From: a virus
Reading direction: 5' to 3' (one strand)
DNA length: 64,000 bases
IMG/VR virus record: IMGVR_UViG_3300032288_005579
Part shown: piece by piece, positions 21,714 through 48,400 of the stretch
Layout of the letters: each line of letters starts with the position of its first letter
Numbering within the stretch: the first letter of the stretch is position 1
The notes under the pieces: model-generated
Told to the model about the DNA's origin: nothing
The model's database searches: none
The model's input: only the letters and a program-made list of their open reading frames with translations
Position numbers and translations under genes: made by a program

Positions 21714-22481
21714 ATGGCGTTAGTATCGCAATCATTTACTACAGTCGGCACATCCTCCTTCTACATTCCCTCAGGAGTAACTTACGTACAAGTCAGAGCT
21801 TGGGCTGGTGGAGGAGGCGGAGGTGGAAAAACTAACACCAACGGAACAGCAGGTGGAGGTGGAGGTGGAGCATTTGTTTCCGGTGCATTGAACGTTTTTC
21901 CCGGAGAAAGACTATCAATAGTTGTCGGAAGCGCAGGTACAGCAGGTCCCGCTTCGGATACTGCAGGCGGTAACGGCGGGTATTCTTACGTAACATCCTC
22001 GGCTAATTCTAGTATTTTCGTAAGAGCAGATTTTGGAGACGCTGGAGGCGGAGGTAATGCTGGAGTGGGAGGTCCCGGAGGGGCGGCATCGTTGTGCTCT
22101 ACAGGTAGTCCAAATATCAGTGGATTTGCTTTTAACGGAGGATCAGGTTCTGCTGGATCAGGCGCAACCACGGGATCAGGCGGAGGAGGCGGAGCTGGAA
22201 CTGTGAGAGCGGGCACTAGAGGCACGGGATCTTTTGGTGGAACAGGTAGCATTTTGTTCGGTGGAAACGGTGGAGTTGGAGCATCAAATGCAGCAGGTGG
22301 CGCTGCCGCTTCTACCTCGGGATCATTTAACGTATACGGTGGAGGTGGCGGAGGAGGATCTAGATCCGCCGGCGGCGGTAAAGGTGGGGGAGTAGGAAGG
22401 CAGGGTTACGTGGAAATATATTATGAAACACTTGACACTCAACCGGTATTTATACATTGGATAGACGACGAAGAGTATTGA
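21714..22481 (+). CDS. Glycine-rich fibre-tip/adhesin-like protein
   Basis: SFYIPSGVTYVQVRAWAGGGGGGG, multiple GGGGG runs and C-terminal GRQGYVEIYY. This is typical of phage Gly-rich (polyglycine II) domains. Confidence 0.7.
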   Translation: MALVSQSFTTVGTSSFYIPSGVTYVQVRAWAGGGGGGGKTNTNGTAGGGGGGAFVSGALNVFPGERLSIVVGSAGTAGPASDTAGGNGGYSYVTSSANSSIFVRADFGDAGGGGNAGVGGPGGAASLCSTGSPNISGFAFNGGSGSAGSGATTGSGGGGGAGTVRAGTRGTGSFGGTGSILFGGNGGVGASNAAGGAAASTSGSFNVYGGGGGGGSRSAGGGKGGGVGRQGYVEIYYETLDTQPVFIHWIDDEEY

Positions 22482-22524
22482 TAAAAGGTTGTTTACTTTT
22501 GGAAAGTGAAAAAAGTAAAAACGC

Positions 22525-22974
22525 ATGGCAAACGAATTCATAGCCAGGAATGGCATAATAGCAAGAAGTAATTCCGTAATAACGGGATCCCTATCGGTTA
22601 GTTCGTCTCTTTCTATAGGGGACATACAACCGTCTGCCACGATAGGCAGATTGGACGCATCAAACGACATAGTAGCTTTCAACAGCTCTGATAAAAGATT
22701 CAAAACGAACATAACTCCCATAGAGAATGCGCTTGAAAAAGTGCAGAAGATAAACGGCGTTGAATTCGATTGGATACCCGATCCGGTGAATCACGGGTAC
22801 CAGGGTCACGATGTCGGAGTGATAGCTCAAGAGATCGAGGAGGTCGTCCCAGAATTAGTAAGGACTAGGAACAGCGGTTACAAAGCCGTTAAATACGATA
22901 AGATAGTAGCACTACTAATAGAAGCGATAAAAGACCTTAAGAAAGAGATAGACGAACTGAAGAAAGGGAAGTAA
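22525..22974 (+). CDS. Peptidase S74 / intramolecular chaperone domain protein
   Basis: SSDKRFKTNI..IENALEKV..INGVEFDW, GVIAQEIEEVVPELV and VKYDKIVALLIEAIKDL, ending in a coiled coil. Confidence 0.92.
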   Translation: MANEFIARNGIIARSNSVITGSLSVSSSLSIGDIQPSATIGRLDASNDIVAFNSSDKRFKTNITPIENALEKVQKINGVEFDWIPDPVNHGYQGHDVGVIAQEIEEVVPELVRTRNSGYKAVKYDKIVALLIEAIKDLKKEIDELKKGK

Positions 22975-22976
22975 CC

Positions 22977-25900
22977 ATGCCTATACCCGCTTCAGGTCCG
23001 ATATCGATGAGTATGATGAATACGGAGCTGGGTAGGATACCCAATGCTCCTGTATCGATATTGGCCGGGGGACTGGTTCCCATAGAGGGATCTTTGTTTT
23101 GGTTGGGAGGACAGAGCGGTAGTTTAAACCAAACTGCGCCCCACTACTTCAGCGAATGGTACAATTATACTCCTAACAATTCCCCCACTCCTACACCTAC
23201 AGTATCTGTAACTGTAAGCGTTACTCCTACAGTTGGTATATCTTCTACGCCTAGTGTGAGCGTGACTCCGACAAAGAGTATCACTCCTACTATAAGCATA
23301 ACACCTACCATAAGTGTAACTTCTACGATCAGCGTTACTCCCACAATCAGCGTAACTCCAACTATAAGTGTAACTAAAACAATCACACCTACGATTAGCG
23401 TTACACAGACTACAAGCGTGACTGCTACTATAAGTTTAACTCCTACTATAAGCGTTACAAGAAGCGTTAGCATTACTCCCACGATAAGTATCACGACGAC
23501 CGTTACCCCTACAAATACTGCTACTCCTACGATAAGTGTCACTCCCACCATCAGCGTCACTCCTACTATTAGTTTGACTCCAACAATAAGCATTACTTCC
23601 ACCATCAGTGTCACTCCAACTAGAACAGCGACTGTAAGCGTAACTCCCACGATAAGTATAACTCCTACTATAAGCGTAACTAGCACAATTACTCCAACTA
23701 CTAGTGTAACTCCTACTATTAGTATAACACCTAGCATAAGTATTACGCCGACAATCAGCGTCACTCCTACTATTAGTATTACATCTACGATTAGCGCTAC
23801 AGCTGGAATAAGTCTTACTCCTACGGTAAGCATTACACCTACAATCAGTGTTACATCCACTATAACTCCTACAATAAGTACTACTCCCACTATAAGCATT
23901 ACACCTACTATTAGTATAACAAGCAGCATTACTCCCACTGTTAGTATTACACCCACCATTAGTGTTACTTCAACAATTAGCGTTACTCCTACCGTAAGTG
24001 TAACTAGAACAGTAACTCCTACGATAAGTGTTACTCCTACAATCAGTGTTACTCCTACCGTAAGTGTAACTAGTACAATAACTCCTACATTAAGCATTAC
24101 ACCTACTAATAGTATAACTCCTACTATAAGCGTAACTAGCACAATTACTCCCACTACTAGTGTAACTCCTACTATCAGCATTACTCCTACAATTAGCGTT
24201 ACATCGACGGTAACTCCCACTATTAGTGTAACACAGACTATTAGCGTAACTCCCACAATTAGTGTAACAACTACTGTTACGCCGACTATAAGTATTACTC
24301 CTACCATCAGTGTTACTTCTACAATAAGCTCAACCCCGGGAATAAGTCTCACTCCTACTGTGAGTATCACACCCACGATAAGTATAACTCCTACTATAAG
24401 CGTAACTAGCACAATTACTCCCACTACTAGTACTACGCCTACAATATCTATCACTCCAACTATAAGCATAACTTCCACTCCAACTCCTACTATTAGCGTC
24501 ACTCCCACAATTAGCATTACTCGAACCGCTAGTATAACTCCTACAATAAGCATAACCAATACGACTACTCCTACCATTAGCGTAAGTCCCACTATAAGTG
24601 TTACGCCAACTATTAGTATCACGCCTACAATAAGCATAACAAGTACCATTACGCCTACTATTAGCGTGACTAAAACAGCTACGATTACTCCAACAATCAG
24701 TATAACTCCTACTAGGACAATAACTCCAACGATAAGCGTAACTACAACGATTACTCCTACAATTAGTGTTACACAGACCGCAAGTATTACGCCTACAATA
24801 AGCGTAACTAGCACAATTACTCCTACAATTAGTGTAACGCCTAGCATGAGCATTACTTCCACAATTAGCGTTACGCCTACTATAAGTGTAACTAGAACAG
24901 TTACTCCCACGATCAGCATCACTCCAACTATAAGTGTTAGTCCAACGATAAGTGTAACAAGCACCGTTACGCCTACAATTAGTGTTACGCCGACTATAAG
25001 CGTTACTCCCACTATTAGTGTCACTTCCACAATAAGCGCAACTCCTGGAATAAGTACAACACCTACTGTCAGCATTACACCCACTATTAGTGTAACCGCG
25101 AGCATTACTCCAACTATCAGTATAACTCCAACTATTAGCATTACACCAACAATCAGCGTCACTCAAACGGTTAGTGTTACACCCACTATTAGTATTACTC
25201 AAACTGCTAGCATTACACCAACCACTAGTATAACTCCTACAATAAGTGTGACTAGTAGCGTTACTCCTACTATAAGCGTTAGTGCTACGGCGAGTGTTAC
25301 TCCTACTATAAGTGTAACTAATACAATAACACCAACAATCAGTATCACTCCGACTATATCAATCACTCCTACCATAAGTCTTACCCCCACAATCAGCGTT
25401 ACTAGATCTGTTACGCCTACTATAAGCGTCACTCCCACCATCAGCATTACACCGACTATAAGCATCACGCCTACTATAAGTGTAACTAGTACAATTACGC
25501 CTACCATAAGTGTAACTAGAACCGCAACTCCTACAATAAGTGTTACTCCTACCATAAGCGTAACACCTACCATAAGTGTAACTAGAACCGCAACTCCTAC
25601 AATAAGTGTTACTCCTACAATCAGCATCACTTCTACTATAACGGCTACTACCAGTGTTACACCCACAATTAGTATTACACCTACTATAAGTGTAACTAAA
25701 ACTGTAACTCCTACAATTAGTATTACTCCTACTATAAGTGTAACACCGACTATAAGTGTCACATCAACAGTTACCCCTACTATAAGCGCTACTCCTACGA
25801 TTAGTATCACTCCGACTATATCAATCACTCCTACCACAAGTATCACTCCGACCATTAGTATTACCCCCACAATCAGTGTTACCAGAACAGCAACTATTAC

Positions 25901-27857
25901 GCCTACGATCAGTGTTACTCCCACAATTAGCGTTACACCAACTATCAGTGTGACTCCTACGATTAGCATTACTCCTACTAGAACGGCCACTATCAGCGTT
26001 ACACCCACTATTAGCGTGACGCCAACCATAAGTGTCACTTCTACAATTACTCCCACAACGAGCGTTACTCCTACGATATCTATTACGCCTACGATTAGCG
26101 TAACCAAAACCATTACGCCAACAATAAGCATTACTCCAACGATCTCTATAACTCCCACTATTAGTATTACTTCTACTATAAGTGTTACGCCAACCATAAG
26201 TGTCACTTCAAGCGTTAGTGCAACTCCGACAATAAGCATTAGTCCTACTAGAACTGCTACAATAAGCGTTACACCGACTATAAGCATAACGCCCACAATA
26301 AGTGTAACTATAACTGTTACTCCCACTATTAGTATCACGCCTACGATTAGTATAACGCCCACAATAAGTGTAACTAGTAGCATAACTCCTACTATCAGCG
26401 TTACTCAAACCGCTAGCATAACTCCTACAATCAGTATTACTAGAACTGTAACTATAACTCCTACAATTAGTGTTACGCCTACAGTAACTCCTACAATCAG
26501 CATTACACAGACTTCATCAATTACTCCCACTATCAGTGTAACACCTACAATTAGTATTACGCGAACTGTTACTATAACTCCTACCATAAGCATAACGCAA
26601 ACGGCAACTATTACTTCAACGATCAGTGTAACTCCAACTATAAGTGTAACTCAAACAACTACAGTAACTCCGACAATTAGTGTTACGCCAACTATCAGTA
26701 TTACTAGAACCGCAACTATTACGCCTACTATAAGCATTACTCCTACAATAAGCATTACTCAAACTCCTACCATTACGCCTACTATTAGCATAACTCCTAC
26801 AACTACTATAACGCCAACCATCAGCATAACTCCTACAATCAGTATTACTAGAACCGTAACTATAACTCCTACTATAAGCATTACTCCTACAACAAGCGTT
26901 ACTCCAACTATATCTATAACTCCCACTATTAGCATAACTCCTACTATCAGCATTACACGTACTATAAGTGTGACTAGCACTGCTACACCAACGATCAGCG
27001 TAACTCCAACCATCAGCATTACTCCAAGTACCAGCGTAACTCCAACCATCAGCATAACTCCTACAATAAGTGTAACTCCTACAATTAGTATTACGCAAAC
27101 TGCAACCATTACTCCAACCATCAGCATAACTCCTACTATTAGTATTACAAGAACTCCTACCATTACGCCTACTATTAGCATAACTCCTACAACTACTATA
27201 ACGCCAACCATCAGCATAACTAGAACCGCAACTATTACTCCTACTATTAGCATAACTCCTACAATAAGTGTTACAAAAACTGCTACTATTAGCATAACTC
27301 CTACGAGGACAGCCACTATTAGCATTACACCAACAAGAACTCCTACCATTACACCTACTATTAGCATAACTCCTACGAGGACAGCCACTATTAGCATTAC
27401 ACCAACAAGAACTCCTACCATTACACCTACTATTAGCATAACTCCTACGAGGACGCCTAGTATTACGGCTACCCCAGTAACAGATCGCACGATAAATATA
27501 TATGTAAGTAATCAAGCGACTGTTACCATTAATGGACCTCTACAAACTTTTTATAAAATAGGAGTTGGAGGAAGCTGGACATTATTCAATAATACTTTTA
27601 ATAGTACAACGTGTACTAACCTTGGATCGGTATCGGTTCCTAACGGATCTTTGTTATATATCGGATTCCAAGACGCAAATAATGTAAACGTAGGTTTCGA
27701 TGCTGTGGCGCCCGGAACAAGTAGCACTACATGCCCTACTTTTACCGGTGTGGCTGACTACTGTAGAGATACATCTGATTGGTCTGATACTATAAATGCT
27801 AATGGTAGTAGAGCATTCACAATACAAGTAACAGGCGGAGAATATGTAGGTTGTTAA
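22977..27857 (+). CDS. Mucin-like Thr/Ser/Pro/Ile hexapeptide-repeat virion protein
   Basis: About 70-aa N-terminus (MPIPASGPISMSMMNTELG...PHYFSEWYNY), about 1430 aa of TPTIS(I/V) repeats and a roughly 125-aa C-terminal domain with four Cys. Confidence 0.85.
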   Translation: MPIPASGPISMSMMNTELGRIPNAPVSILAGGLVPIEGSLFWLGGQSGSLNQTAPHYFSEWYNYTPNNSPTPTPTVSVTVSVTPTVGISSTPSVSVTPTKSITPTISITPTISVTSTISVTPTISVTPTISVTKTITPTISVTQTTSVTATISLTPTISVTRSVSITPTISITTTVTPTNTATPTISVTPTISVTPTISLTPTISITSTISVTPTRTATVSVTPTISITPTISVTSTITPTTSVTPTISITPSISITPTISVTPTISITSTISATAGISLTPTVSITPTISVTSTITPTISTTPTISITPTISITSSITPTVSITPTISVTSTISVTPTVSVTRTVTPTISVTPTISVTPTVSVTSTITPTLSITPTNSITPTISVTSTITPTTSVTPTISITPTISVTSTVTPTISVTQTISVTPTISVTTTVTPTISITPTISVTSTISSTPGISLTPTVSITPTISITPTISVTSTITPTTSTTPTISITPTISITSTPTPTISVTPTISITRTASITPTISITNTTTPTISVSPTISVTPTISITPTISITSTITPTISVTKTATITPTISITPTRTITPTISVTTTITPTISVTQTASITPTISVTSTITPTISVTPSMSITSTISVTPTISVTRTVTPTISITPTISVSPTISVTSTVTPTISVTPTISVTPTISVTSTISATPGISTTPTVSITPTISVTASITPTISITPTISITPTISVTQTVSVTPTISITQTASITPTTSITPTISVTSSVTPTISVSATASVTPTISVTNTITPTISITPTISITPTISLTPTISVTRSVTPTISVTPTISITPTISITPTISVTSTITPTISVTRTATPTISVTPTISVTPTISVTRTATPTISVTPTISITSTITATTSVTPTISITPTISVTKTVTPTISITPTISVTPTISVTSTVTPTISATPTISITPTISITPTTSITPTISITPTISVTRTATITPTISVTPTISVTPTISVTPTISITPTRTATISVTPTISVTPTISVTSTITPTTSVTPTISITPTISVTKTITPTISITPTISITPTISITSTISVTPTISVTSSVSATPTISISPTRTATISVTPTISITPTISVTITVTPTISITPTISITPTISVTSSITPTISVTQTASITPTISITRTVTITPTISVTPTVTPTISITQTSSITPTISVTPTISITRTVTITPTISITQTATITSTISVTPTISVTQTTTVTPTISVTPTISITRTATITPTISITPTISITQTPTITPTISITPTTTITPTISITPTISITRTVTITPTISITPTTSVTPTISITPTISITPTISITRTISVTSTATPTISVTPTISITPSTSVTPTISITPTISVTPTISITQTATITPTISITPTISITRTPTITPTISITPTTTITPTISITRTATITPTISITPTISVTKTATISITPTRTATISITPTRTPTITPTISITPTRTATISITPTRTPTITPTISITPTRTPSITATPVTDRTINIYVSNQATVTINGPLQTFYKIGVGGSWTLFNNTFNSTTCTNLGSVSVPNGSLLYIGFQDANNVNVGFDAVAPGTSSTTCPTFTGVADYCRDTSDWSDTINANGSRAFTIQVTGGEYVGC
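23187..27476 (+). repeat. 18-bp-period coding repeat, roughly 235-240 hexapeptide units
   Basis: Consensus ACTCCTAC(A/T)AT(A/T)AG(C/T)(A/G)T(T/A), G-poor on the + strand. Unit number was estimated from length. Confidence 0.95.
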
Positions 27858-27905
27858 AAATTTGCACTTAAAAGTTGAATGGCAAATTCCATCCAGAAAA
27901 TGGTA

Positions 27906-27913
27906 TATTTATA
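27906..27913 (+). promoter_or_regulatory. TATTTATA motif heading the glycan-enzyme cluster
   Basis: 29 nt upstream of ATG 27943. Confidence 0.65.
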
Positions 27914-27942
27914 GTAAATGATCGTTTCGGCAAAACTAGTTT

Positions 27943-29199
27943 ATGGCAAAAATATTTGTTTCGATAGCTTCATACAGAGATCCAGAATTACTTCCTACTT
28001 TAAGAGATTGTATCGCTAACGCCGATCAACCAGATAATCTGGTATTCGGTATATGTTGGCAACACGCAAAAGAGGACGAGTGGGATAACTTAGATCAATT
28101 TAAAAAAGACAAAAGGTTCAGGATACTTGACATAGATCACAAGGAATCAAAGGGCGTTTGTTGGGCAAGGAATAAAATAGGGTCTTTATATAAAGACGAG
28201 GACTATTATATGCAATTGGATTCTCACCACCGTTTCATACAGGGTTGGGACTCCAAATTAAAGGACATGATAGGTTATCTACAGTCCCAGTGTTACGAAA
28301 AACCCATACTCTCTACCTATCTGCCTTCCTATTTTCCTGAAAAAGATCCAGCAGATAGAACTCAAGAGGTTTGGTTTTTAAACATAGATAGGTTTTTACC
28401 AGAGGGCGCAGTATTCCTACGTCCACAGGGTTTAGACGGATGGAGAGATATGAAAGAGCCAGTTAGATCCAGATTCTTATCAGCTCACTTTATATTTACT
28501 CTTGGTAAATTCGCTAAAGAGGTTCCTTACGATCCGTATCTGTATTTTCACGGAGAAGAAACTTCATTGGCGGCTAGAGCTTTTACTCATGGGTACGATA
28601 TATTTAATCCTCACAGGATATATGTTTGGCACGAATACACGAGAGAAGGAAAGAAAAAACACTGGGACGATCACACCTCATATCCGGACCTTGATAAGAC
28701 CTCTTACGCGCGTTTTAGAAAGCTTTTTGCGATGGAAGGAGAATGTACTCCGTGTACGATAAAGAGTTTTGGAGAATTTTATTTTGGAAACGAAAGAACT
28801 CTTGAAGAGTACGAACGTTACGCGGGATTAAAGTTTAAAACCAGACAAATACACGAAGAGACTCTACAACACAAACCTGCCCCTATTGTAGGAGATTACG
28901 AATCGGGATTGAAGAGCAAAGTGAAAGTTTGTATAGACGTGTATAGAGGGGCTTTAAAAGAAACCGATTACGATACTTTCGTTATCGCTCTACTAGACGA
29001 AAACGGAAAGGATTTGTATAGACAAGACGCTGATAAAAACGAGATCTCTATGATCATGAATTCTGACATTAAAGACCAATTTGTGCACATTTGGAGAGAA
29101 TACGAAAGCCAAAAATTGCCTCACAGTTGGAGAGTTTGGCCCCATAGCGAATCAAAAGGTTGGATGGAAAGAATAGAAAACGTTATAAAATATGAGTAA
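27943..29199 (+). CDS. GT60/Gnt1-like polypeptide alpha-GlcNAc transferase (GlcNAc family), paralog A
   Basis: IFVSIASYRDPEL, FGICWQ, KGVCWAR, YYMQLDSHHRF..GWD, VPYDP.LYFHGEETSLAARAFTHGYDIFNP and VWHEYTR match Dictyostelium Gnt1-type motifs. Confidence 0.88.
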   Translation: MAKIFVSIASYRDPELLPTLRDCIANADQPDNLVFGICWQHAKEDEWDNLDQFKKDKRFRILDIDHKESKGVCWARNKIGSLYKDEDYYMQLDSHHRFIQGWDSKLKDMIGYLQSQCYEKPILSTYLPSYFPEKDPADRTQEVWFLNIDRFLPEGAVFLRPQGLDGWRDMKEPVRSRFLSAHFIFTLGKFAKEVPYDPYLYFHGEETSLAARAFTHGYDIFNPHRIYVWHEYTREGKKKHWDDHTSYPDLDKTSYARFRKLFAMEGECTPCTIKSFGEFYFGNERTLEEYERYAGLKFKTRQIHEETLQHKPAPIVGDYESGLKSKVKVCIDVYRGALKETDYDTFVIALLDENGKDLYRQDADKNEISMIMNSDIKDQFVHIWREYESQKLPHSWRVWPHSESKGWMERIENVIKYE

Positions 29200-30460
29200 G
29201 AAACTAGAGACAATACTGCTGCATCTTCCCTCTTACAGGGATCCAGAACTTATACCCACAATCAAAGACGCTTTAGAAAAAGCGAAATATCCCAAAAGGA
29301 TTCATTTCGGAATATGCCGTCAATACCACCCTGAAGATAAGTTTGACGATCTGACAGAATACAAATCGGACAAACGATTCAAGATTTACGAGTGTTTGTA
29401 TACGGAGGCAAAAGGACTTCCCTGGGCGAGATCTATCATAAATGAGAAGCTGCTTGACGACGAAGACTACATATGTCAATTGGACTCACATCACAGATTC
29501 GCTCAAGATTGGGACGAGACTCTTATAACTATGCACAACGACCTTGAGAAGAGGGGCTACAAGAAACCTATCGTTGCTGGTTATTCTCCTCTGTACGATC
29601 CGTTCAACGACCCAGCAGGAAGATCGATGGAACCGTGGCAATCTCAGTTCGTATGCTTCTATCCCCACGGTACTATATTTATTCGACCAGGTTTGTTGCA
29701 CGGTTACCAAAACATGACAGAGCCACCGATGTCTAGGTTCCTCTGCGGGCATTTCGATTTCGCAAGAAGCGAATGGGCTAGAGAGATCAAGCACGATCCA
29801 GACATCTACTTTAGCGGTGAGGAAATAAATCTCACAGTAAGATCTTACACTCACGGTTACGATTTCTTTCATCCACATAAGATCGTAGTTTGGCATTCGA
29901 CAATGAGAGAAGAGCGCGCTGGAAAATTGAAATGGGACGATGATGCTAGATTGGGCGTTGATTGGTATAATAAACAAGAATATGCTCGCAGAAAAATACG
30001 CTGCTTACTTCGCACAGAAGAGGGTGTCGATTTAACGGGTTACGATTTGGGCACAGTTAGAACTTTGCGAGATTACGAAAGATACGCAGGATTCAACTTT
30101 AAAAAGAAAGCTGTTCAAAAATATACTCTAGAAAATAAATATCCTCCGAACCCTGTGATAGAGGATCCCGAACTATGGGAACAATCATTCATGAATTCGT
30201 ACTATCATCTCGTAGACGTACAAAGGTCTATGTTCAAAGAAGATAAATATAAATTTGTGTTGGTAGCTTTTGATGACGAGACTGGTAAATCTGTCAATAG
30301 TAAATTTATAGACGATTATAGATTGGAAATGTTTAATAAGGGCCAAAATATTCATTACGAAGAGTACTTCTTATCAGAAAAGAAGCCTACACGAGTAGTG
30401 TATTGGGGACACACTGAAGAAAAAGGCTGGTGCGAAAGGTACGAATTCAATATAGGATAA
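29192..30460 (+). CDS. GT60/Gnt1-like polypeptide alpha-GlcNAc transferase, paralog B
   Basis: ILLHLPSYRDPEL, FGICRQ, KGLPWAR, CQLDSHHRFAQDWD, DPDIYFSGEEINLTVRSYTHGYDFFHP and VWHSTMR. Confidence 0.86.
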   Translation: MSKKLETILLHLPSYRDPELIPTIKDALEKAKYPKRIHFGICRQYHPEDKFDDLTEYKSDKRFKIYECLYTEAKGLPWARSIINEKLLDDEDYICQLDSHHRFAQDWDETLITMHNDLEKRGYKKPIVAGYSPLYDPFNDPAGRSMEPWQSQFVCFYPHGTIFIRPGLLHGYQNMTEPPMSRFLCGHFDFARSEWAREIKHDPDIYFSGEEINLTVRSYTHGYDFFHPHKIVVWHSTMREERAGKLKWDDDARLGVDWYNKQEYARRKIRCLLRTEEGVDLTGYDLGTVRTLRDYERYAGFNFKKKAVQKYTLENKYPPNPVIEDPELWEQSFMNSYYHLVDVQRSMFKEDKYKFVLVAFDDETGKSVNSKFIDDYRLEMFNKGQNIHYEEYFLSEKKPTRVVYWGHTEEKGWCERYEFNIG

Positions 30461-30477
30461 CAAAAAGATAGAACATA

Positions 30478-32097
30478 ATGGCTAACATATCTTTTTACGG
30501 TTCGCACAACGCTGCGTATGTCGTAGAGAAAGACGGAGAGATTATACTAGTATTAGAGGTAGAGAGATTCTTAAACCACAAGAATAGTGGAATCGCCCAG
30601 TATAATTGTCCAAGAACTGACGATATTCTGTTTTTCGCAGAGTATATTCCTAAATGGATCATGAAAAAATTGGACATAGAAGAATTTGACAATTGCTTTT
30701 ATTCTAATAGCGATGTGATAATGGACGAAGTTCGTTATTGTTTACATAAAGCCATACCCGCCAAAAAATATACAGAGTGTTGGCATCACCAATCTCACGC
30801 AGCTGGAGCTTTTTATCAATCTAATCACAAGAAAGCATTGATATTCTCTTTCGACGGAGGAGGAAATGATGGAAAATTTTGTGTGTACACTTGCAATAGA
30901 GGAGAGTCTCCAAAATTATTGAAGAGCGTATTAAATCCTGTGCTGAATCATCCTCATATAGGTTATGATTTGGGATTTCCCTACATGGTATTAGCGCACT
31001 ATCTAAAAGATATAAAGTACGAAGATCTGGGAATGGGTAACTTAGTTTATCCTGGAAAACTTATGGGTCTTGCGTCATATGGAAAAGTTATTGAAGATTG
31101 GATACCCGCTTTCACAAAATTTTATAAGAGTAATCCAGATGGAGGAAATTATCACAGTAAAGTAAGCGAACTTTCTGAAGAAATTGGAGTAGTATTCGAT
31201 GTTAATAATCGTCTTGATGGACAAATCGCCTACGACATAGCGGCCACAACTCAGAGAGTGTTCGAAGATTGTTTCTTAGAAATCGCTAAACCCTATATTG
31301 ATGAGTACCCTGATTATCCCATTTGTGTAACAGGAGGATGCGGATTAAACATCATATTGAACACTAGATTAGTCACAGAATTAGAAAAAGAAGTTTTCGT
31401 AGGACCAGATCCAAATGATTGTGGAATTGCATTAGGAATGATGCTCAATTACTTGAAGCCAGCAAAACCTTACGATTCCACCTACTCAGGAACAGAACTA
31501 CTAGATATAGATACGCTTTCGGCTAAAATACAGGGCGTAGGATTCCCTATGAAGAGTCGAAGACTAAATCTTACAAATCTAGCAAAAGATATTGAAGCAG
31601 GCAAAATAGTGGGAGTAGCTAGAGGGAGATCAGAACACGGTCCTCGAGCACTAGGAAATAGAAGCATAATTTGCAATCCCGCAATCGCTAACATGAAAGA
31701 CGTGCTTAATGAAAAGGTAAAACACAGAGAGTGGTATAGGCCTTTTGCGCCCGTGGTTAGATTAGAAGATGTCAATAAGTACTTTGAATGGAATAAAGAA
31801 TCCAGATGGATGAGTTTTTGTCCCAAAGTAAAAGAAGAGTGGAAAAGCAGACTTGGAGCTATAACCCACGTAGATGGAACCGCGAGAGTTCAAACTGTTA
31901 CTAGAAAACAAAACGAATTCTTATACGATCTATTGACTGAATTTGAAAAGGTGACTGGCGTGGGAGTTTTACTCAATACCTCATTTAATGTGGACGGTAA
32001 ACCTATACTATCTACCGTTCAAGACGCTTTTACAATTCTAGAGAAGACACAGTTGGACGCATTAGTAATAGAAAATACCTACATCAAAAAATTATGA
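30478..32097 (+). CDS. Carbamoyltransferase, NodU/CmcH/TobZ family
   Basis: HHQSHAAGAF, DGGG, GKLMGLASYG, GGCGLN, NDCGIALG, GRSEHGPRALGNRSI, KHREWYRPFAP, HVDGTARVQTV and LLNTSFNVDGKPI. Confidence 0.95.
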   Translation: MANISFYGSHNAAYVVEKDGEIILVLEVERFLNHKNSGIAQYNCPRTDDILFFAEYIPKWIMKKLDIEEFDNCFYSNSDVIMDEVRYCLHKAIPAKKYTECWHHQSHAAGAFYQSNHKKALIFSFDGGGNDGKFCVYTCNRGESPKLLKSVLNPVLNHPHIGYDLGFPYMVLAHYLKDIKYEDLGMGNLVYPGKLMGLASYGKVIEDWIPAFTKFYKSNPDGGNYHSKVSELSEEIGVVFDVNNRLDGQIAYDIAATTQRVFEDCFLEIAKPYIDEYPDYPICVTGGCGLNIILNTRLVTELEKEVFVGPDPNDCGIALGMMLNYLKPAKPYDSTYSGTELLDIDTLSAKIQGVGFPMKSRRLNLTNLAKDIEAGKIVGVARGRSEHGPRALGNRSIICNPAIANMKDVLNEKVKHREWYRPFAPVVRLEDVNKYFEWNKESRWMSFCPKVKEEWKSRLGAITHVDGTARVQTVTRKQNEFLYDLLTEFEKVTGVGVLLNTSFNVDGKPILSTVQDAFTILEKTQLDALVIENTYIKKL

Positions 32098-33902
32098 ACC
32101 TACCAGAAAATTTAAAAGATATATTCAATAAAGTCAGAAGCTTATCAAATGAAGAGTTTAGTACGCTTGTTTCCGCTTTACAAGAAGCTCCTAAAAAAAT
32201 GGAAATATTGAATAAAGAACTCACAGTTGTCACTGGTTTATGGAACATAAATAGACCCGGTAGAGATTTCTCCCACTACATAGAGCACTTTGAGAAGTTT
32301 CTACAAATCCCAGTCAACATGTTTATATACATACCTCAAGAATACGAATACTTGGTATGGAAACACAGAGATCGAGAGAATACATACGTAAAGATATATG
32401 AATTAGACGATGTAAAACGTCTGTATGAACCTTTTTGGGAAAATACCCAAAACATTCGAAATAATCCCGAGTGGTTGAATCAAACCGGCGAAAACGGTTG
32501 GTTGAAAGGTTCGCCGCAAGCGTCTATAGAGTTTTACAATCCTATAGTACAATCAAAGATGTTCATGTTGAGCGATGCGACTATATGGGATCCTTTCCAA
32601 TCCGAGTATTTTATGTGGCTAGACGCGGGCATAACAAATACTGTATGGGAAAATTATATGATAAACGATCGAGTTCTCGATAAAATCAATAAACATCTTG
32701 ACGCGTTTTTATTTCTTTCATATCCATACGAAACGCAAGAAGAAATTCACGGATTTAGAAAGAACGAGATGGATAAAATGGCAGGAAAATCTGTCAAATA
32801 TGTTTGCCGAGGGGGATTATTCGGAGGAAGAAAAGAATTAATAAGATCAGCGAATGCAGAATACTATACGTTGCTTGATTCCTCATTATCTCGAGGTTTT
32901 ATGGGAACCGAAGAGAGTATTTTTACAATAATGTCCTATCTAAATCCATATAATTATAGACGATACGAACTTGACTCAAATGGGTTGATAGTAAAGTACA
33001 TACAGAATTTGGCGCAGGATACAGCCGAACTAGCTTCCACCCCCGAAAGGAATGTCAGTATAAAGAACAACAATCCAGCGATAAATCATTTAAAAACTTC
33101 GCTGTACATGTTGACTTTCAATTTCCCTGAACAGGTCGAACACACTCTTAAAACATTTGAAGACAATTCGCCTGATTGGTTAAAGAAAACTAGAAAAATT
33201 CTTATAGATAATTCTACTAACGATGAGGCTAGAATAAAAAATAGAGAGATCTCAGATAAATGGGGATTTGAACACATAATTAGGAATGAAAATACGGGCA
33301 TCAACGGAGGTCGTCAATTTGCCGCTGAACATTTTGATGCTTCTGATAGCGACTACTACTTCTTTTTTGAAGACGATATGGGACTTCACCCTTCCACAGA
33401 AACAGGATACTGTAGAAACGGATTCAGAAAATATGTTCCTAATCTGTATAACAGTCTTCACAAGATCATGGTGAGAGAGAACTTCGATTTTTTGAAATTC
33501 TCATTCACAGAGGTTTATATGGACAATCACATACAGGTTTCTTGGTATAATGTACCACAAATAGTGAGAACACGGGATTTCCCAGACTACGATCAACTGC
33601 CTATAACGGGTTTCGATCCCAATGCACCAAGAACTAAATTTGAAAACATAGACGTTTTTGATGGATTAGCGTACATATCAGGAAACATTTATTACGCCAA
33701 TTGGCCTATGATAATGAGTAGAGAGGGCAATAAGAAAGTGTTTTTGACCACAACTTGGGGTAGACCTTACGAACAAACTTGGATGTCTTATGTATATCAA
33801 GAGTGTCTAGAGGGCCGAATAAAACCCGGAATCTTGTTAGCTTCACCAGTAAATCACAATAGAATATCGCATTATAAGCCTGAAGATCGGCGAGAAAACT
33901 AA
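32094..33902 (+). CDS. Two-domain glycan enzyme: HtrL/YibB-like N-terminal domain plus GT-A (GT2-like) C-terminal domain
   Basis: TVVTGLWNI, KMFML.DA...DPF.SEYFMWLDAG, GGLFGG and GTEESI (HtrL-like). LTFNFP, ILIDNS, NTGINGGRQ and YFFFEDD (GT-A DxD-like). Confidence 0.78.
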   Translation: MNLPENLKDIFNKVRSLSNEEFSTLVSALQEAPKKMEILNKELTVVTGLWNINRPGRDFSHYIEHFEKFLQIPVNMFIYIPQEYEYLVWKHRDRENTYVKIYELDDVKRLYEPFWENTQNIRNNPEWLNQTGENGWLKGSPQASIEFYNPIVQSKMFMLSDATIWDPFQSEYFMWLDAGITNTVWENYMINDRVLDKINKHLDAFLFLSYPYETQEEIHGFRKNEMDKMAGKSVKYVCRGGLFGGRKELIRSANAEYYTLLDSSLSRGFMGTEESIFTIMSYLNPYNYRRYELDSNGLIVKYIQNLAQDTAELASTPERNVSIKNNNPAINHLKTSLYMLTFNFPEQVEHTLKTFEDNSPDWLKKTRKILIDNSTNDEARIKNREISDKWGFEHIIRNENTGINGGRQFAAEHFDASDSDYYFFFEDDMGLHPSTETGYCRNGFRKYVPNLYNSLHKIMVRENFDFLKFSFTEVYMDNHIQVSWYNVPQIVRTRDFPDYDQLPITGFDPNAPRTKFENIDVFDGLAYISGNIYYANWPMIMSREGNKKVFLTTTWGRPYEQTWMSYVYQECLEGRIKPGILLASPVNHNRISHYKPEDRREN

Positions 33903-37155: not shown

Positions 37156-38112
37156 ATGACAGTCTATCATCTGGAAAACGTAAGTTATCTCAAAAAGACT
37201 TGGGATGTCGTATTTGCAGAGCTTGTTAAACACCTAAAAAACAAACACAGCGCAAAAGTAGTATACGATGGAAACACTCCAGATATAGAGCGTACTTTGT
37301 ACATTCCTGAATTGAATTACCAAATGAAGGACTGTGAATTGGTTATATACGACGAACACAAGGACTCCTTCAAAGCCATAAGTTTCAGCGAACACAAGAC
37401 AAACATTTGGAACGCTTTCGAAAAACGCAACAACAAGAACGATCTACTGCTAATAACCCAGTTCTACGATTGGTTTAATAAAGAGTGCGAAACTGGTGAA
37501 TTCAAACACGATTTGTCTCACTGTAAATTCTCGGTAGGTTCTACAGTATTTTATCCTCTCTGGACAAATATAGACTACGAAGAAATATACAGTAGAAGAA
37601 AGGCCAAGAAACCAGAGGAGTTTGTGGATAAAATGTTCATGTTATTTGGTACCCACAGATCTGATCCTTTTGAATTGTCAAAGCGGGGATATCTAAACGA
37701 AATGGTGGGGTTTTTAGAACAACCGGAATACTTCGATGCTCTAATAAATCACAAAGTTGGTCTATCCATAGCCACAGTAGCAGATTTTTGTTATCGTGAC
37801 ATAGAATACATGGCAATAGGAATGCCTTACATACGAGTGGAATACATAAATGAGTTCGATCCCCCGTTGATTCCGAATTTTCACTACGTTTCTATAGACA
37901 GAGAGAAGAACGGATTACCCCATAATTCGGGTTTAGATAGGGAAGGCAGCGAAAAGCACGTAGAAGCCTATATAAAAAGATTTTTAGAGGTGAAAGAAGA
38001 CACCGCGTTTTTAGAATTTGTGGCTAATAACGCTAGGGAATACTACGTTAAGTACTGCAGTCCAAAAAATAGGATACCGCACTTGCTAAATCTTCTTAGA
38101 ATCAGAGATTGA
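37156..38112 (+). CDS. Putative glycosyltransferase (GT-B-like C-terminal half)
   Basis: HKVGLSI...DFCYRDIEYMAIGMPYI and LEFVANNAREYY resemble CgeB/Glyco_trans_1_2-type C-terminal domains. Confidence 0.55.
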   Translation: MTVYHLENVSYLKKTWDVVFAELVKHLKNKHSAKVVYDGNTPDIERTLYIPELNYQMKDCELVIYDEHKDSFKAISFSEHKTNIWNAFEKRNNKNDLLLITQFYDWFNKECETGEFKHDLSHCKFSVGSTVFYPLWTNIDYEEIYSRRKAKKPEEFVDKMFMLFGTHRSDPFELSKRGYLNEMVGFLEQPEYFDALINHKVGLSIATVADFCYRDIEYMAIGMPYIRVEYINEFDPPLIPNFHYVSIDREKNGLPHNSGLDREGSEKHVEAYIKRFLEVKEDTAFLEFVANNAREYYVKYCSPKNRIPHLLNLLRIRD

Positions 38113-45442: not shown

Positions 45443-48400
45443 GTGGCGTACATACAATTAGAAAACATACTTGGGGTACCTATAGAAATTTTCGTAAGGA
45501 ACCAAATTAGGAATAGGAGCAGCAGGATCTCATCAACTAATTCTAATTGGAACGAAGACGATACCATAAAATATAAGGCCAACCGAACCGGATGGGTGAG
45601 GCTAGTTTCTGGGGTCGACGTCAACGAAGAGAATCTCATGAAAACGTATGGTCTCTCAGATCCAAGCGATTTAGCCAAGAGTTTCGTTCTCATGGGAGGA
45701 ACTTCTAAATATAAGACAAGGACAGTTAAACCATATAAATACGATCCCGATAGTTCAGAAGAATACAATCTTAAGTGGCAAGCAGAAGCTCCTGAGATAA
45801 CTGAGTTTGACGGGTATTCCCTAAGATCGGGTTTTCAAGACACATACAACCTTTTCGGAGCAGACGAACTCAACAGTTTCGGTTACAGACCCATGCCCGG
45901 TATAAAGTCTGTGAAGATAACTACAGCTGGTAAATTGGGATCCATAAAAACTGCGAACATCTCATTCACTGTCAACAGTAAGTCCCAGCTCGACGTCATA
46001 GACATATTGTATTTCAAATTGGGATACATGATGTTCTTGGAGTGGGGAAACACAATGTACGTGGACACTAAAGGTGTTGTAAAATCCTCTGAAGAGTACA
46101 GCATAGATCCGTTCGAAGTCGGAATGGACAAAGACAGGTTGAGAGCGAAGATACTAAAATCCATTAAAGAGTCTGACGGAAATTACGACGCCATGATAGG
46201 CATAGTCACGAACTTCAACTTCTCTTTCAAGGACGGATCCTACAGCTGCGAATTGTCCCTCATGGGACTCGGTGTTTTGGCGGAGTCCATGAGGATGAAC
46301 AACACCGCTACGCAGTACCCCGAATTGCTTCGAAACACGATAAAAGATTTAGTGAATCTCAGAAACGCAGAAATAGAAGAGACAAAAAGGAAAGCTAGAG
46401 AGAAAGCCTTAAAACAATTGAACGCGCAATTCGCGGTTGAAGGAACTCCTATAAAAGCGAGTCAATTAGCCCAACCTGAAAATGCTTCGAAGTTCGGATT
46501 CACGGTCTTGTACACTTTCAATAATTCGAATGAAAATCGGCTCCTAGCTAAGGATTACTATTTTAAAGATGCAGGTGGAAATGATTTTTTGATAATAAAT
46601 CAATTTCAAACAGGAGACGATTCAAAAGCCATATCAGGAAAAGCTCAAATGAGACTTAACACGATAACAAACACGTACGAATACTCTGATGCGGCTGAAA
46701 ACTATAAAGTACAAATATCTTCTGATAAAATAGATAAAGTATTTAAAATATATGACTCTTCGTACAACGCAGCAGATATAAAAGCTGTCGCAGCCGAATC
46801 TTTAGATTACACAAATATAGAAATTAGCGTCAAAGAGGGAGGTTTACAATTTCCAATTTGGTATGGAAAAGACAATCCAAACTATTCAGCAATTCCAAAA
46901 AAATACGATGGAAGTTCTGCGCGCATAAAAAACGATTACACGGAAAAGTTTGAATTTTTTGCAGCTGGAAATGGTGATAAGTGGTGGTACTATCATTATT
47001 TAACCAAGGCGAATATACGATTTACTTTGGGAAGTATAGACATCAAAGTATCAAATTTTCCTATAAGACTCACAGAAACCTCAGAAGGCATAGTTGAAGC
47101 AGGAATTAATCGAAGAGTTAGATTCGAGGAAGGAAAATTGTATGACTTCACGTCAGATTTTAATAAATTACGAGACTTGATGCTCATAATATTTAGTAGA
47201 GTAAAATATACAGAATCGACAAAATTTGGATTTGAAATAAGCCGAGGAAGTGCAAGCGATATCATACAATATTCCTGTCAATTCTCCGTAAACATATCTG
47301 ATTTCCAAGACATTCTTAATACTGGGATAGAAGGTCCTATATACACAAATTCTAGTTTAAACAGTCCTGAAGATAATTCTCCTCTTTATAGAAGAGATAA
47401 AGCACCGGAAGCTTATGGACAAATAAAATTAGAAATACAAAATTTACTATTAAATGAAACTTTCAATTTTTCAATAACAGCATCTACTACTGACAGCGCT
47501 TTCTTGCAAAATCTAAATATTGTAAACGGTATTACTTTATCTCCATCAAAAAAAATAAGGATATTCTCTGATGCAGGTACATTTACAACTGATTCTGATG
47601 CGGCAAGACAGGCAGAAGAAGAAGCCATAGACGAATTGGGAGACAAAGGTAAAAAATTGGATGCTAATGAAGTCCAGAGTTACGAAGCTTCCCGTTATTC
47701 TTCTTATCTACAATTGATGTTAAGGGGAGTACAACTCTACAGTTACGCTAAAGTAAGTAAAAAAGGACAAAGGTCGACGCTTAAACAAACTGCAAATCTA
47801 GCAGAGTACATAACCAACTTTATAAATCCTTCACCTACTCAAGGCAACAAATCCTCATCTGAGGATAAAAACTTCATAGACAATTTATTTGAGAACGGCG
47901 CTTTGAAAGTGTTAAAAAATGAAAATTACAATATAGGAAAATTCGTAAACGATACGTTACCTGAGAAAATCGATTTCGAAAACAACAGATATTACACAGA
48001 ATTGTCCTACGGTTTTGCAAGAATGATCATGAGATCCGAGGATCCATTGCTTTTGATTACTAAAGGCAAGCCAAAAGAAGAGGACGCAACAAACACGAAT
48101 AACGAGAATAAAAAAACAGAGCAATCTGAAGAAAACAAAGAGACCAAATTTATTCAGGGTCCCGTAAAGTTTGAAGATCTTATGGTCTCTTATGTCGTCC
48201 CTTACAACCAAGTTTCTCAAGACGCTTCAGCTACAGCAGAATTAAATTATCCCTGTTACATACCGCTCGGGTTTCTATTCATGATGTTCAACCACGTTAG
48301 TTTGCTGTACGAAAACGATAGTAAGAAAGGAGAAAAAGATAAAAATAGGCCTTTAGTTTACATAGATTTCAATCCCGACAGCAATCTTTGTTTAAGAAGC

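Follow-up and report, generated by a model that had tools for sequence, protein, structure and literature searches.

A candidate phage-encoded O-glycosylation cassette behind a giant threonine/serine-rich repeat protein in the structural module of a large myovirus

Why would a phage place genes for four sugar-modifying enzymes directly behind the gene of a giant protein, half of which is threonine and serine? The question is raised by positions 22977-33902 of a 64,000-nucleotide stretch of viral DNA (IMG/VR record IMGVR_UViG_3300032288_005579), which is referred to as a whole as the window. An earlier note on this DNA had described a 1626-aa protein, about half Thr/Ser and rich in Pro, followed by four abutting or overlapping genes for two GT60-like transferases, a NodU-type carbamoyltransferase and a fusion of HtrL with a GT-A glycosyltransferase (GT), and had read the whole as a mucin-type glycosylation system. 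The open reading frames (ORFs) match the coordinates given there exactly, all on the + strand, and the four enzyme genes, termed the cassette in the following, are spaced by -8, +17 and -4 nt. Comparison across hundreds of phages and bacteria suggests that enzymes of this kind sugar-coat Ser/Thr-rich tracts, and we consider it probable that the cassette serves the O-glycosylation of a mucin-like virion fibre in the host cytoplasm. The glycosylation reading of the earlier note thus stands in two respects, the linkage of cassette and tract and the mucin-initiator-like fold of the GT60 enzymes, while its further steps are conditional.

The product of 22977-27857 contains 33.6% Thr, 15.9% Ser, 11.9% Pro, 17.8% Ile and 8.4% Val, in agreement with the composition claimed for it, and its most frequent hexamers are TPTISI and TPTISV. 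Three parts can be distinguished. The N-terminal non-repeat domain of ~70 aa (22977-23186), a possible virion-attachment module, found no match in Pfam and PHROG searches; it is near-identical in the orthologues of two related loci (L003 and L004) and recognisable at the start of the short tract proteins of two others (L007 and L011). The central tract of 1420 residues (23187-27446), the proposed O-glycan acceptor, is made of TPTIS[IV] hexads with 4-residue inserts. Between residues 71 and 1490 the 710 alternate positions are occupied by 500 Thr, 206 Ser and 4 Gly, so the (S/T)-X register runs through without a slip. The X positions are taken by Ile, Pro, Val and few others, Ile or Val accounting for ~56% of them. 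The C-terminal globular domain of ~135 aa (27447-27857, stop codon included) matches PHROG 15511, a family of unknown function, with an E-value of 4e-10 and has a single homologue in a collection of 5.8 billion proteins; the L003 and L004 orthologues carry different C-terminal sequences. An N-terminal hydrophobic signal was not found in the tract protein.

The gene is truly coding in this frame. Over 23187-27476 the coding frame is free of stops and the other five frames contain 5 to 476 of them, and the third codon positions of the gene vary most. The DNA of the tract consists of degenerate repeats of 18, 36 and 66 nt with 60-80% identity, in which the peptide repeat is nonetheless kept. The conclusion follows from these features, the sole open frame, the third-position variation and the diverged DNA repeats with a kept peptide, together with the conserved ends of the protein.

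The resemblance to mucins is partial. Tandem repeats dominated by Ser, Thr and Pro, as in mucin-type (Pro/Thr/Ser) domains, are present, the share of the three residues being 61% in the whole protein and 66% in the tract. Such domains hold few hydrophobic residues and no regular pattern, whereas Ile and Val constitute 28% of the tract and alternate strictly. The designation as a mucin acceptor therefore holds for the repeats but not in the sense of a classical mucin. Polypeptide N-acetylgalactosaminyltransferases (GalNAc-transferases) favour acceptor sites with Pro at -1, +1 or +3, and each hydroxyl residue of TPTISV presumably has a Pro at such a position. The Dictyostelium acceptor PsA is built from PTVT repeats.

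The first two enzyme genes, GT60a (27943-29199) and its paralogue GT60b (29192-30460; ~40% identity), both match PF11397, the Pfam profile of CAZy family GT60, scoring 245.6 and 164 bits where 21 bits is the cut-off, which bears out their assignment. An AlphaFold (AF2) model of GT60a, built from 31 homologues, reached a predicted local distance difference test (pLDDT) score of 91.5. The top ~45 matches listed by Foldseek for this model are polypeptide GalNAc-transferases (E 1e-10). VIA, an exhaustive aligner independent of Foldseek, gave Z-scores of 21.6 with GalNAc-T1 and 20.0 with TgGalNAc-T3, and at most 16.8 with other GT-A enzymes; the alignment with GalNAc-T1 spans 276 residues at a root-mean-square deviation of 3.5, and identity to enzymes of this kind is 12-15%. 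By both comparisons the GT-A fold is most like that of GT27 polypeptide GalNAc-transferases, and in the predicted model the GT60 enzymes are structurally nearest to the transferases that initiate mucin-type glycans. D93, H95 and H230 are invariant across the 31 homologues, GT60b included (alignment A1), with D93-S-H95 forming a D-x-H motif. We propose that GT60a is an initiating polypeptide N-acetylhexosamine (HexNAc) transferase.

Both paralogues and most homologues carry, outside the Pfam model, a confidently modelled C-terminal beta domain of ~100 aa (residues ~320-418 of GT60a). This domain could stand in for the lectin domain of the GalNAc-transferases; a ricin-type lectin domain was not detected in GT60a. 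Searches with the beta domain returned a non-significant match to the lectin Nictaba (E 0.73) and no usable match in the ESM Atlas, and the exhaustive fold search was filled by matches to the catalytic domain. The GT60a-GT60b pair is found again in many relatives. The family itself is large, with more than 7,000 clusters at 90% identity and 4,696 at 50%, and occurs on more than 597 IMG/VR stretches and on 191 stretches of species-representative bacterial genomes from many phyla. Many representatives (P0150, P0152, P0153, P0158, P0159 and others) are multi-GT60 fusion proteins, 900-2461 aa long with two to four tandem GT60-domain matches. Fusions of enzyme and tract were sought among the 59 long GT60 representatives, and none has an S/T/P tract.

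The third gene (30478-32097) encodes an O-carbamoyltransferase of the NodU/CmcH/TobZ type, as had been recognised: both Pfam domains exceed their cut-offs (Carbam_trans_C 222.8 bits, Carbam_trans_N 83.6 bits), and similarity to the solved O-carbamoyltransferases NovN, TobZ and GdmN ranges from E 1e-44 to 1e-48. It is an accessory member, present in some cassettes only and absent from those of L007, L008, L011 and L013. The fourth gene (32094-33902) encodes a two-domain GT. Its N-terminal domain is of the HtrL_YibB type (PF09612, 38.9 bits against a cut-off of 24.1), and the AF2 model (pLDDT 90.7) shows two domains, for which Foldseek returns the tandem GT-A enzymes LH3, Mimivirus R699, LARGE1, K4CP, COLGALT1 and PmHS2 (E 1e-10 to 1e-7). 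In the C-terminal domain E426-D427-D428 is nearly invariant (alignment A2). The HtrL half of the supposed fusion is thus confirmed by profile and the GT-A half supported by the model, the profile score of the latter being given below. We also note that no hydrophobic segment of the signal-peptide or membrane type was found in any of the enzymes, as the claim that they lack signal peptides had it.

A fifth GT gene lies apart at 37156-38112 (+ strand), displaced between the tube and hub genes in the window. Its product has no match in Pfam or PHROG, but the ESM Atlas structure search found a model of the exact protein with template modelling (TM) scores of 0.62-0.67 to the Glyco_trans_1_2, GT4 and RXYLT1_C clusters, which points to a GT-B-like enzyme. 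In L003, L004, L006, L008 and ~20 other loci its homologues are located within the cassette, and the gene belongs to the glycosylation set. The genes delimited in the earlier note are all confirmed, and the system is larger than 22977-33902 because this fifth GT belongs to it and because the Gly-rich and S74 genes upstream (21714-22974) have been lost together with it in a relative described below.

Put together, these genes would form a late-expressed module of a large myovirus that produces a very long virion appendage protein and decorates it with O-glycans in the host cytoplasm. The appendage would consist of the short N-terminal domain, the (S/T)-X tract of 1420 residues and the small variable C-terminal domain. 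GT60a and GT60b would transfer the first sugar, probably a HexNAc from a uridine diphosphate (UDP) sugar, to the Ser and Thr hydroxyls of the tract; extension of the glycan would fall to the tandem GT-A/GT-A enzyme and to the GT-B-like product of 37156-38112, and capping of a sugar hydroxyl to the O-carbamoyltransferase. The outcome would be an extended, densely glycosylated stalk bearing the C-terminal domain. We infer the role of the tract as acceptor, the identity of the sugar, the order of the steps and the location in the virion; N-acetylglucosamine (GlcNAc) as the first sugar, carbamoylation of the glycan and roles in shielding, adhesion or mimicry, as put forward earlier, may apply in the same conditional sense.

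Do such enzymes and such tracts belong together elsewhere? In 90 viral loci, S/T/P-tract ORFs account for 57 of the 169 ORFs flanking the cassette (34%) and for 21 of the 640 located more than two genes away (3%), an odds ratio of 15. The odds ratio is 7.5 (p 5e-9) when the loci are dereplicated at 70% identity and bacterial loci are included. Sorted by their non-tract parts, the 77 tract proteins in flanking positions belong to 26 families, and the tract itself is therefore the common factor. In bacterial loci of several phyla, from Sphingomonadales, Vicinamibacterales, Opitutaceae, Saprospiraceae and others, the GT60 gene is preceded on its own strand by the tract gene, the two being 0-113 nt apart, and the bacterial tract proteins carry fn3, BNR, PPC or glycoside-hydrolase-like domains. 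The tracts of the relatives likewise alternate as (S/T)-X, for example TPSVTPSV and TSSISVTPSV. The comparison of sequences thus lends strong support to a link between GT60-led cassettes and S/T-rich tract proteins.

The same linkage bears on a quite improbable alternative, in which the tract is an unglycosylated beta-rich rod, either a solenoid or an amphipathic sheet, possibly trimeric by way of the Peptidase_S74 protein, and the glycans added by the cassette go to other proteins of the virion, for example capsid, sheath or further fibres. The perfect alternation of hydroxyl and hydrophobic residues over 1420 residues would suit such a rod, as would the chaperone-like S74 gene abutting the tract gene, and the neighbouring fibre-like proteins also contain 26-31% Ser, Thr and Pro. 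PMC11256854, citing Freeman et al. 2023, describes GTs of Che8 and related mycobacteriophages that glycosylate the phages' own virion proteins, the targets being (major) capsid and tail-tube proteins. Across phages and bacteria, however, what the neighbours of the cassette share is the tract and not capsid or sheath genes, and the tracts of relatives (TPSV repeats, TP-rich runs) differ in hydrophobic content while the linkage is kept.

Related genomes, searched for GT60 genes with a profile of alignment A1 and with positive controls included, reveal that substrate type and enzyme set change together. Genomes with a cassette and no tract nearby have tract ORFs elsewhere: at least two in G001 (191 kb, complete; two places sampled), nine in G002 (233 kb, complete) and six in G003, the latter two genomes having been read throughout. 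The complete 180-kb genome G006 shares capsid and sheath with the window at 72% and 70% identity and has syntenic tail genes. It lacks the GT60 genes, the carbamoyltransferase, the two-domain GT and the homologue of 37156. Neither end of the tract protein is present in it, nor are the S74 and Gly-rich genes, and no part of the genome contains a tract ORF. The complete 176-kb genome G007, from which the cassette and the 37156 homologue are also absent, fills the same slot, flanked by fibre and sheath genes, with a collagen-repeat fibre that carries an S74 domain and with a giant of 3464 aa of the Gly-Thr/Ser-Ser type. Beside these fibres lie a 2-oxoglutarate (2OG)-Fe(II) oxygenase, a GT4+GT9 fusion, three sugar-type methyltransferases (two of FkbM type, one of them weakly so, and one Methyltransf_24/CmcI-like) and a lectin-fold Laminin_G_3 protein. 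This set (L298:17392-19668 and L299:626-18489, at 95-118 kb of G007) looks like a modification cassette for collagen-type fibres. Tracts elsewhere in genomes with tract-less loci, the joint loss in G006 and the swap in G007 together mean that the GT cluster does not occur in these relatives independently of any S/T-rich structural gene, the occurrence that the earlier note had named as telling against its reading.

These differences raise the possibility, which we put slightly below an even chance, that the fibre and sheath genes of the lineage enclose an exchangeable slot, holding a fibre together with its modifying enzymes and occurring as mucin-like, collagen-like or empty. In the mucin-like version, initiators of the GT60 type, extenders and a carbamoyltransferase would accompany an (S/T)-X tract, and in the collagen-like version an oxygenase of the prolyl/lysyl-hydroxylase type, GT4/GT9 enzymes and sugar methyltransferases would accompany Gly-X-Y giants. 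Of 21 further sheath relatives whose upstream sequence spans at least 6 kb, 17 show neither cassette nor tract in that region and 3 have collagen-like fibres.

Cultured phages add a further comparison. A megablast search of the cassette against them gave no match, and a GT60 homologue is found in four only, all of them jumbo phages of Xanthomonadaceae: Xanthomonas phages XacN1 and Xoo-sp13 and Stenotrophomonas phages CM1 and RAS14. Their cassette comprises a GT60 gene, a carbamoyltransferase, two small genes and a two-domain GT, and is situated between replication genes and the baseplate region. As in the window, XacN1 and Xoo-sp13 have the enzymes in one cassette, with identities of 38-42% for GT60, 48% for the carbamoyltransferase and 38% for the two-domain GT; unlike the window, they have one GT60 copy and a larger carbamoyltransferase of 765 aa. 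In Xoo-sp13, a 3245-aa protein encoded 2.5 kb from the cassette and adjoining baseplate genes contains a T/P/S tract, which at ~45 aa is short in comparison with the 1420 residues in the window. XacN1 virions contain at least two glycoproteins detected by Schiff staining, and the authors suggest the phage's two glycosyltransferases as their makers, ORF334 included (PMC5852040). ORF334 is a homologue of the window GT60, its counterpart in Xoo-sp13 being Xoosp13_304. In the literature searched, no paper links PF11397 or GT60 to phage fibres. The claim that no comparable phage locus had been described needs qualifying, the glycoproteins of XacN1 (PMC5852040) and glycosylation by mycobacteriophages being already in print.

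The gene arrangement in these cultured phages bears on the idea that the GTs glycosylate hydroxymethylated bases of the phage DNA for restriction evasion, since in XacN1 and Xoo-sp13 one side of the cassette borders replication genes (DNA polymerase and RNase H). The other side in Xoo-sp13 is formed by baseplate genes and the giant tract-bearing protein, and in the window the cassette lies inside a late structural operon behind a late-type motif. The known enzymes with which T-even phages glucosylate DNA belong to GT-B; those of the window, in contrast, are GT-A and nearest to polypeptide transferases. The association with tracts would also be left without an explanation, and we regard DNA modification as highly improbable.

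More serious, though still unlikely, is a role for the cassette in modifying a non-protein glycan such as host lipopolysaccharide (LPS), capsule or another envelope polymer, for instance to block superinfection or change a receptor; the cassette would then lie near the fibres because this is a hotspot for accessory genes, and the tract would be a plain linker. HtrL_YibB is named for a gene of the Escherichia coli LPS core cluster whose function is unknown, polysaccharide polymerases (K4CP, PmHS2 and LARGE1) are among the enzymes that the two-domain GT resembles in fold, relatives of the carbamoyltransferase modify small-molecule sugars, and PHROGs classes GT60 and carbamoyltransferase genes as auxiliary metabolic genes. 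The GT60 loci, many bacterial and some viral, that have no tract gene nearby fit such a role too. Set against this are the GT60 fold, nearest to polypeptide-modifying transferases and clearly above other GT-A enzymes, and the roughly tenfold enrichment, beside the cassette, of tract genes from 26 unrelated families. Cassette and tract have moreover been lost together in G006, and a matching collagen-type set occupies the slot in G007. The virion glycoproteins of XacN1 and the lack of a membrane segment in every enzyme likewise speak against such a role.

Several observations weigh against O-glycosylation of a mucin-like fibre, the reading that we prefer. As a mucin the tract is atypical, ~56% of the alternate X positions being Ile or Val. 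A two-residue register kept up without a break over 1420 residues suggests a constraint on structure, of beta type, that is independent of sugar; with Ile, Val or Pro at every second residue, a beta-type structure is possible. With Glycos_transf_2, the C-terminal half of the two-domain GT scores 20.3 bits, under the cut-off of 23.3, so this half of the predicted fusion falls short by profile. On the comparative side, no enrichment remains after single-linkage clustering at 55% (27 clusters) or 45% (7 clusters), for which one arbitrary representative per cluster was used, and the p-values overstate independence because the loci are related. Fibre and secreted proteins commonly contain Pro/Thr linkers, and a tract gene is missing within 10 kb in 50 of 80 bacterial and ~30 of 90 viral loci. 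In one of the 21 sheath relatives, the 17.8-kb fragment L319, a tract gene adjoins the sheath gene and the fragment bears no GT60 gene or cassette, the single case that might speak against obligatory co-occurrence; its tract protein of 598 aa is PSVSITPSITRTPS-type and encoded directly upstream of the sheath region (L319:6845-8638). The virion location of the tract protein is read from gene context, and glycosylation in the phage of the window is argued from genes, predicted folds and linkage. The staining of XacN1 is the sole experimental hint, its bands having been assigned to no proteins.

Known systems resemble parts of the proposed one. GT60 has been described as the protist counterpart of GT27, starting mucin-type glycans with GlcNAc and without a ricin domain, and the Golgi GT60 enzymes of Dictyostelium and Trypanosoma cruzi start O-glycans on Ser/Thr-rich mucin domains (PMC8724618). 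The window enzymes share with these the PF11397 family and a GT-A fold related to GT27, and with cytoplasmic Gnt1, which acts on Skp1, they share solubility. They differ in being encoded by phages and bacteria, in the extra C-terminal beta domain of ~100 aa and in a candidate acceptor with alternating Ile/Val. Metazoan and apicomplexan GT27 enzymes provide the nearest solved folds, and the phage family has the invariant D-x-H and a later His; in contrast to GT27, identity is 12-15%, a ricin-type lectin domain was not detected and there is no membrane anchor. The two-domain GT is similar to Mimivirus R699, LH3, COLGALT1, LARGE1 and K4CP in its tandem GT-A domains, but TM-scores are ~0.25 because the arrangement of the domains differs, and it has no sequence similarity to solved structures.

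The closest working analogue, in function only, would be the serine-rich repeat protein (SRRP) adhesins of Gram-positive bacteria, Fap1, GspB and SraP, in which a very long Ser-rich repeat fibre is likewise encoded beside a GT cluster. Their conserved first step is the addition of O-GlcNAc by GtfA/GtfB, followed by stepwise extension (PMC5207161). SRRP systems differ from the window in this two-protein initiator, which belongs to another enzyme family, and in a signal peptide on the substrate, accessory Sec export and anchoring to the cell wall; the Pfam and PHROG scans of the genes tested named no GtfA/GtfB or SecA2/SecY2-type protein. Mycobacteriophages, as described in PMC11256854, resemble the proposed system in that phage-encoded GTs act on the phage's structural proteins, and differ in that major capsid proteins are the targets there and a dedicated giant repeat protein would be the target here.

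Very few systems offer experimental evidence that phage enzymes glycosylate phage particles. Should GT60-type enzymes indeed coat (S/T)-X fibres, O-glycosylation of the mucin type would be no eukaryotic speciality, and it would be explained why proteins of large environmental phages contain very long Thr/Ser/Pro tracts. A fully extended glycosylated stalk of 1420 residues could span several hundred nanometres, a length that would alter views of how phages find hosts or adhere to particles, and the soluble cytoplasmic enzymes would be tools for making mucin-like glycoproteins in bacteria. If the slot reading is also true, phages would carry both major eukaryote-style chemistries of extracellular-matrix glycoproteins as exchangeable cassettes, and the GT60 family would represent a widespread prokaryotic system of protein O-glycosylation.

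The surroundings of the cassette agree with its supposed position between fibre and sheath genes. PHROG matches mark the window as the structural module of a large myovirus, with genes for portal (414), major head protein (7964), adaptor, fibre-like giants (13025 and 16923), sheath (34584), tube (36577), hub (38153) and tape measure (39306). By Pfam and PHROG, the neighbours of the cassette are structural genes for fibre-like proteins, with the S/T/P content given above, a Peptidase_S74 chaperone-like ORF, sheath, tube and hub. The Gly_rich_2 domain protein of 255 aa (21714-22481, + strand; PF21722, E 1.7e-12) is encoded by the first gene of the unit missing from G006 and gave no tblastn match in the complete relatives G006 and G007. 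It is followed by the stand-alone Peptidase_S74 ORF of 149 aa (22525-22974, + strand; PF13884, E 7.5e-19), which is similar to fibre trimerisation chaperones, resembles the C-termini of many tail-fibre PHROGs and has its stop 2 nt ahead of the tract gene. The order S74 to tract is repeated in L003, L004, L007 and L011. The intramolecular-chaperone domain Peptidase_S74 usually forms the C-terminus of a fibre and is a separate ORF in the window.

The upstream motif that had been noticed in front of both structural and enzyme genes is real. ATATTTAT occurs 21 times in the window against 4.3 expected, a count reached in none of 100 shuffles. Many structural genes have it 20-40 nt ahead of them, as do the first GT60 gene (27905-27912, + strand, 31 nt upstream) and the fifth GT gene (37135, + strand). 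Its placement makes it a candidate for a late promoter in this phage lineage. Within the cassette, noteworthy terminators or signals of the sigma-70 type were not found. On the + strand there are 17 ATATTTAT(A) sites, including 2354, 9751, 12963, 27905, 33920, 34552, 36542, 37135, 38128, 39278 and 52511. We also note a second ORF of exactly 1626 aa in the window (45443-50323), a giant of the baseplate region with a 33%-identical homologue in G006; that it equals the tract protein in length appears to be a coincidence.

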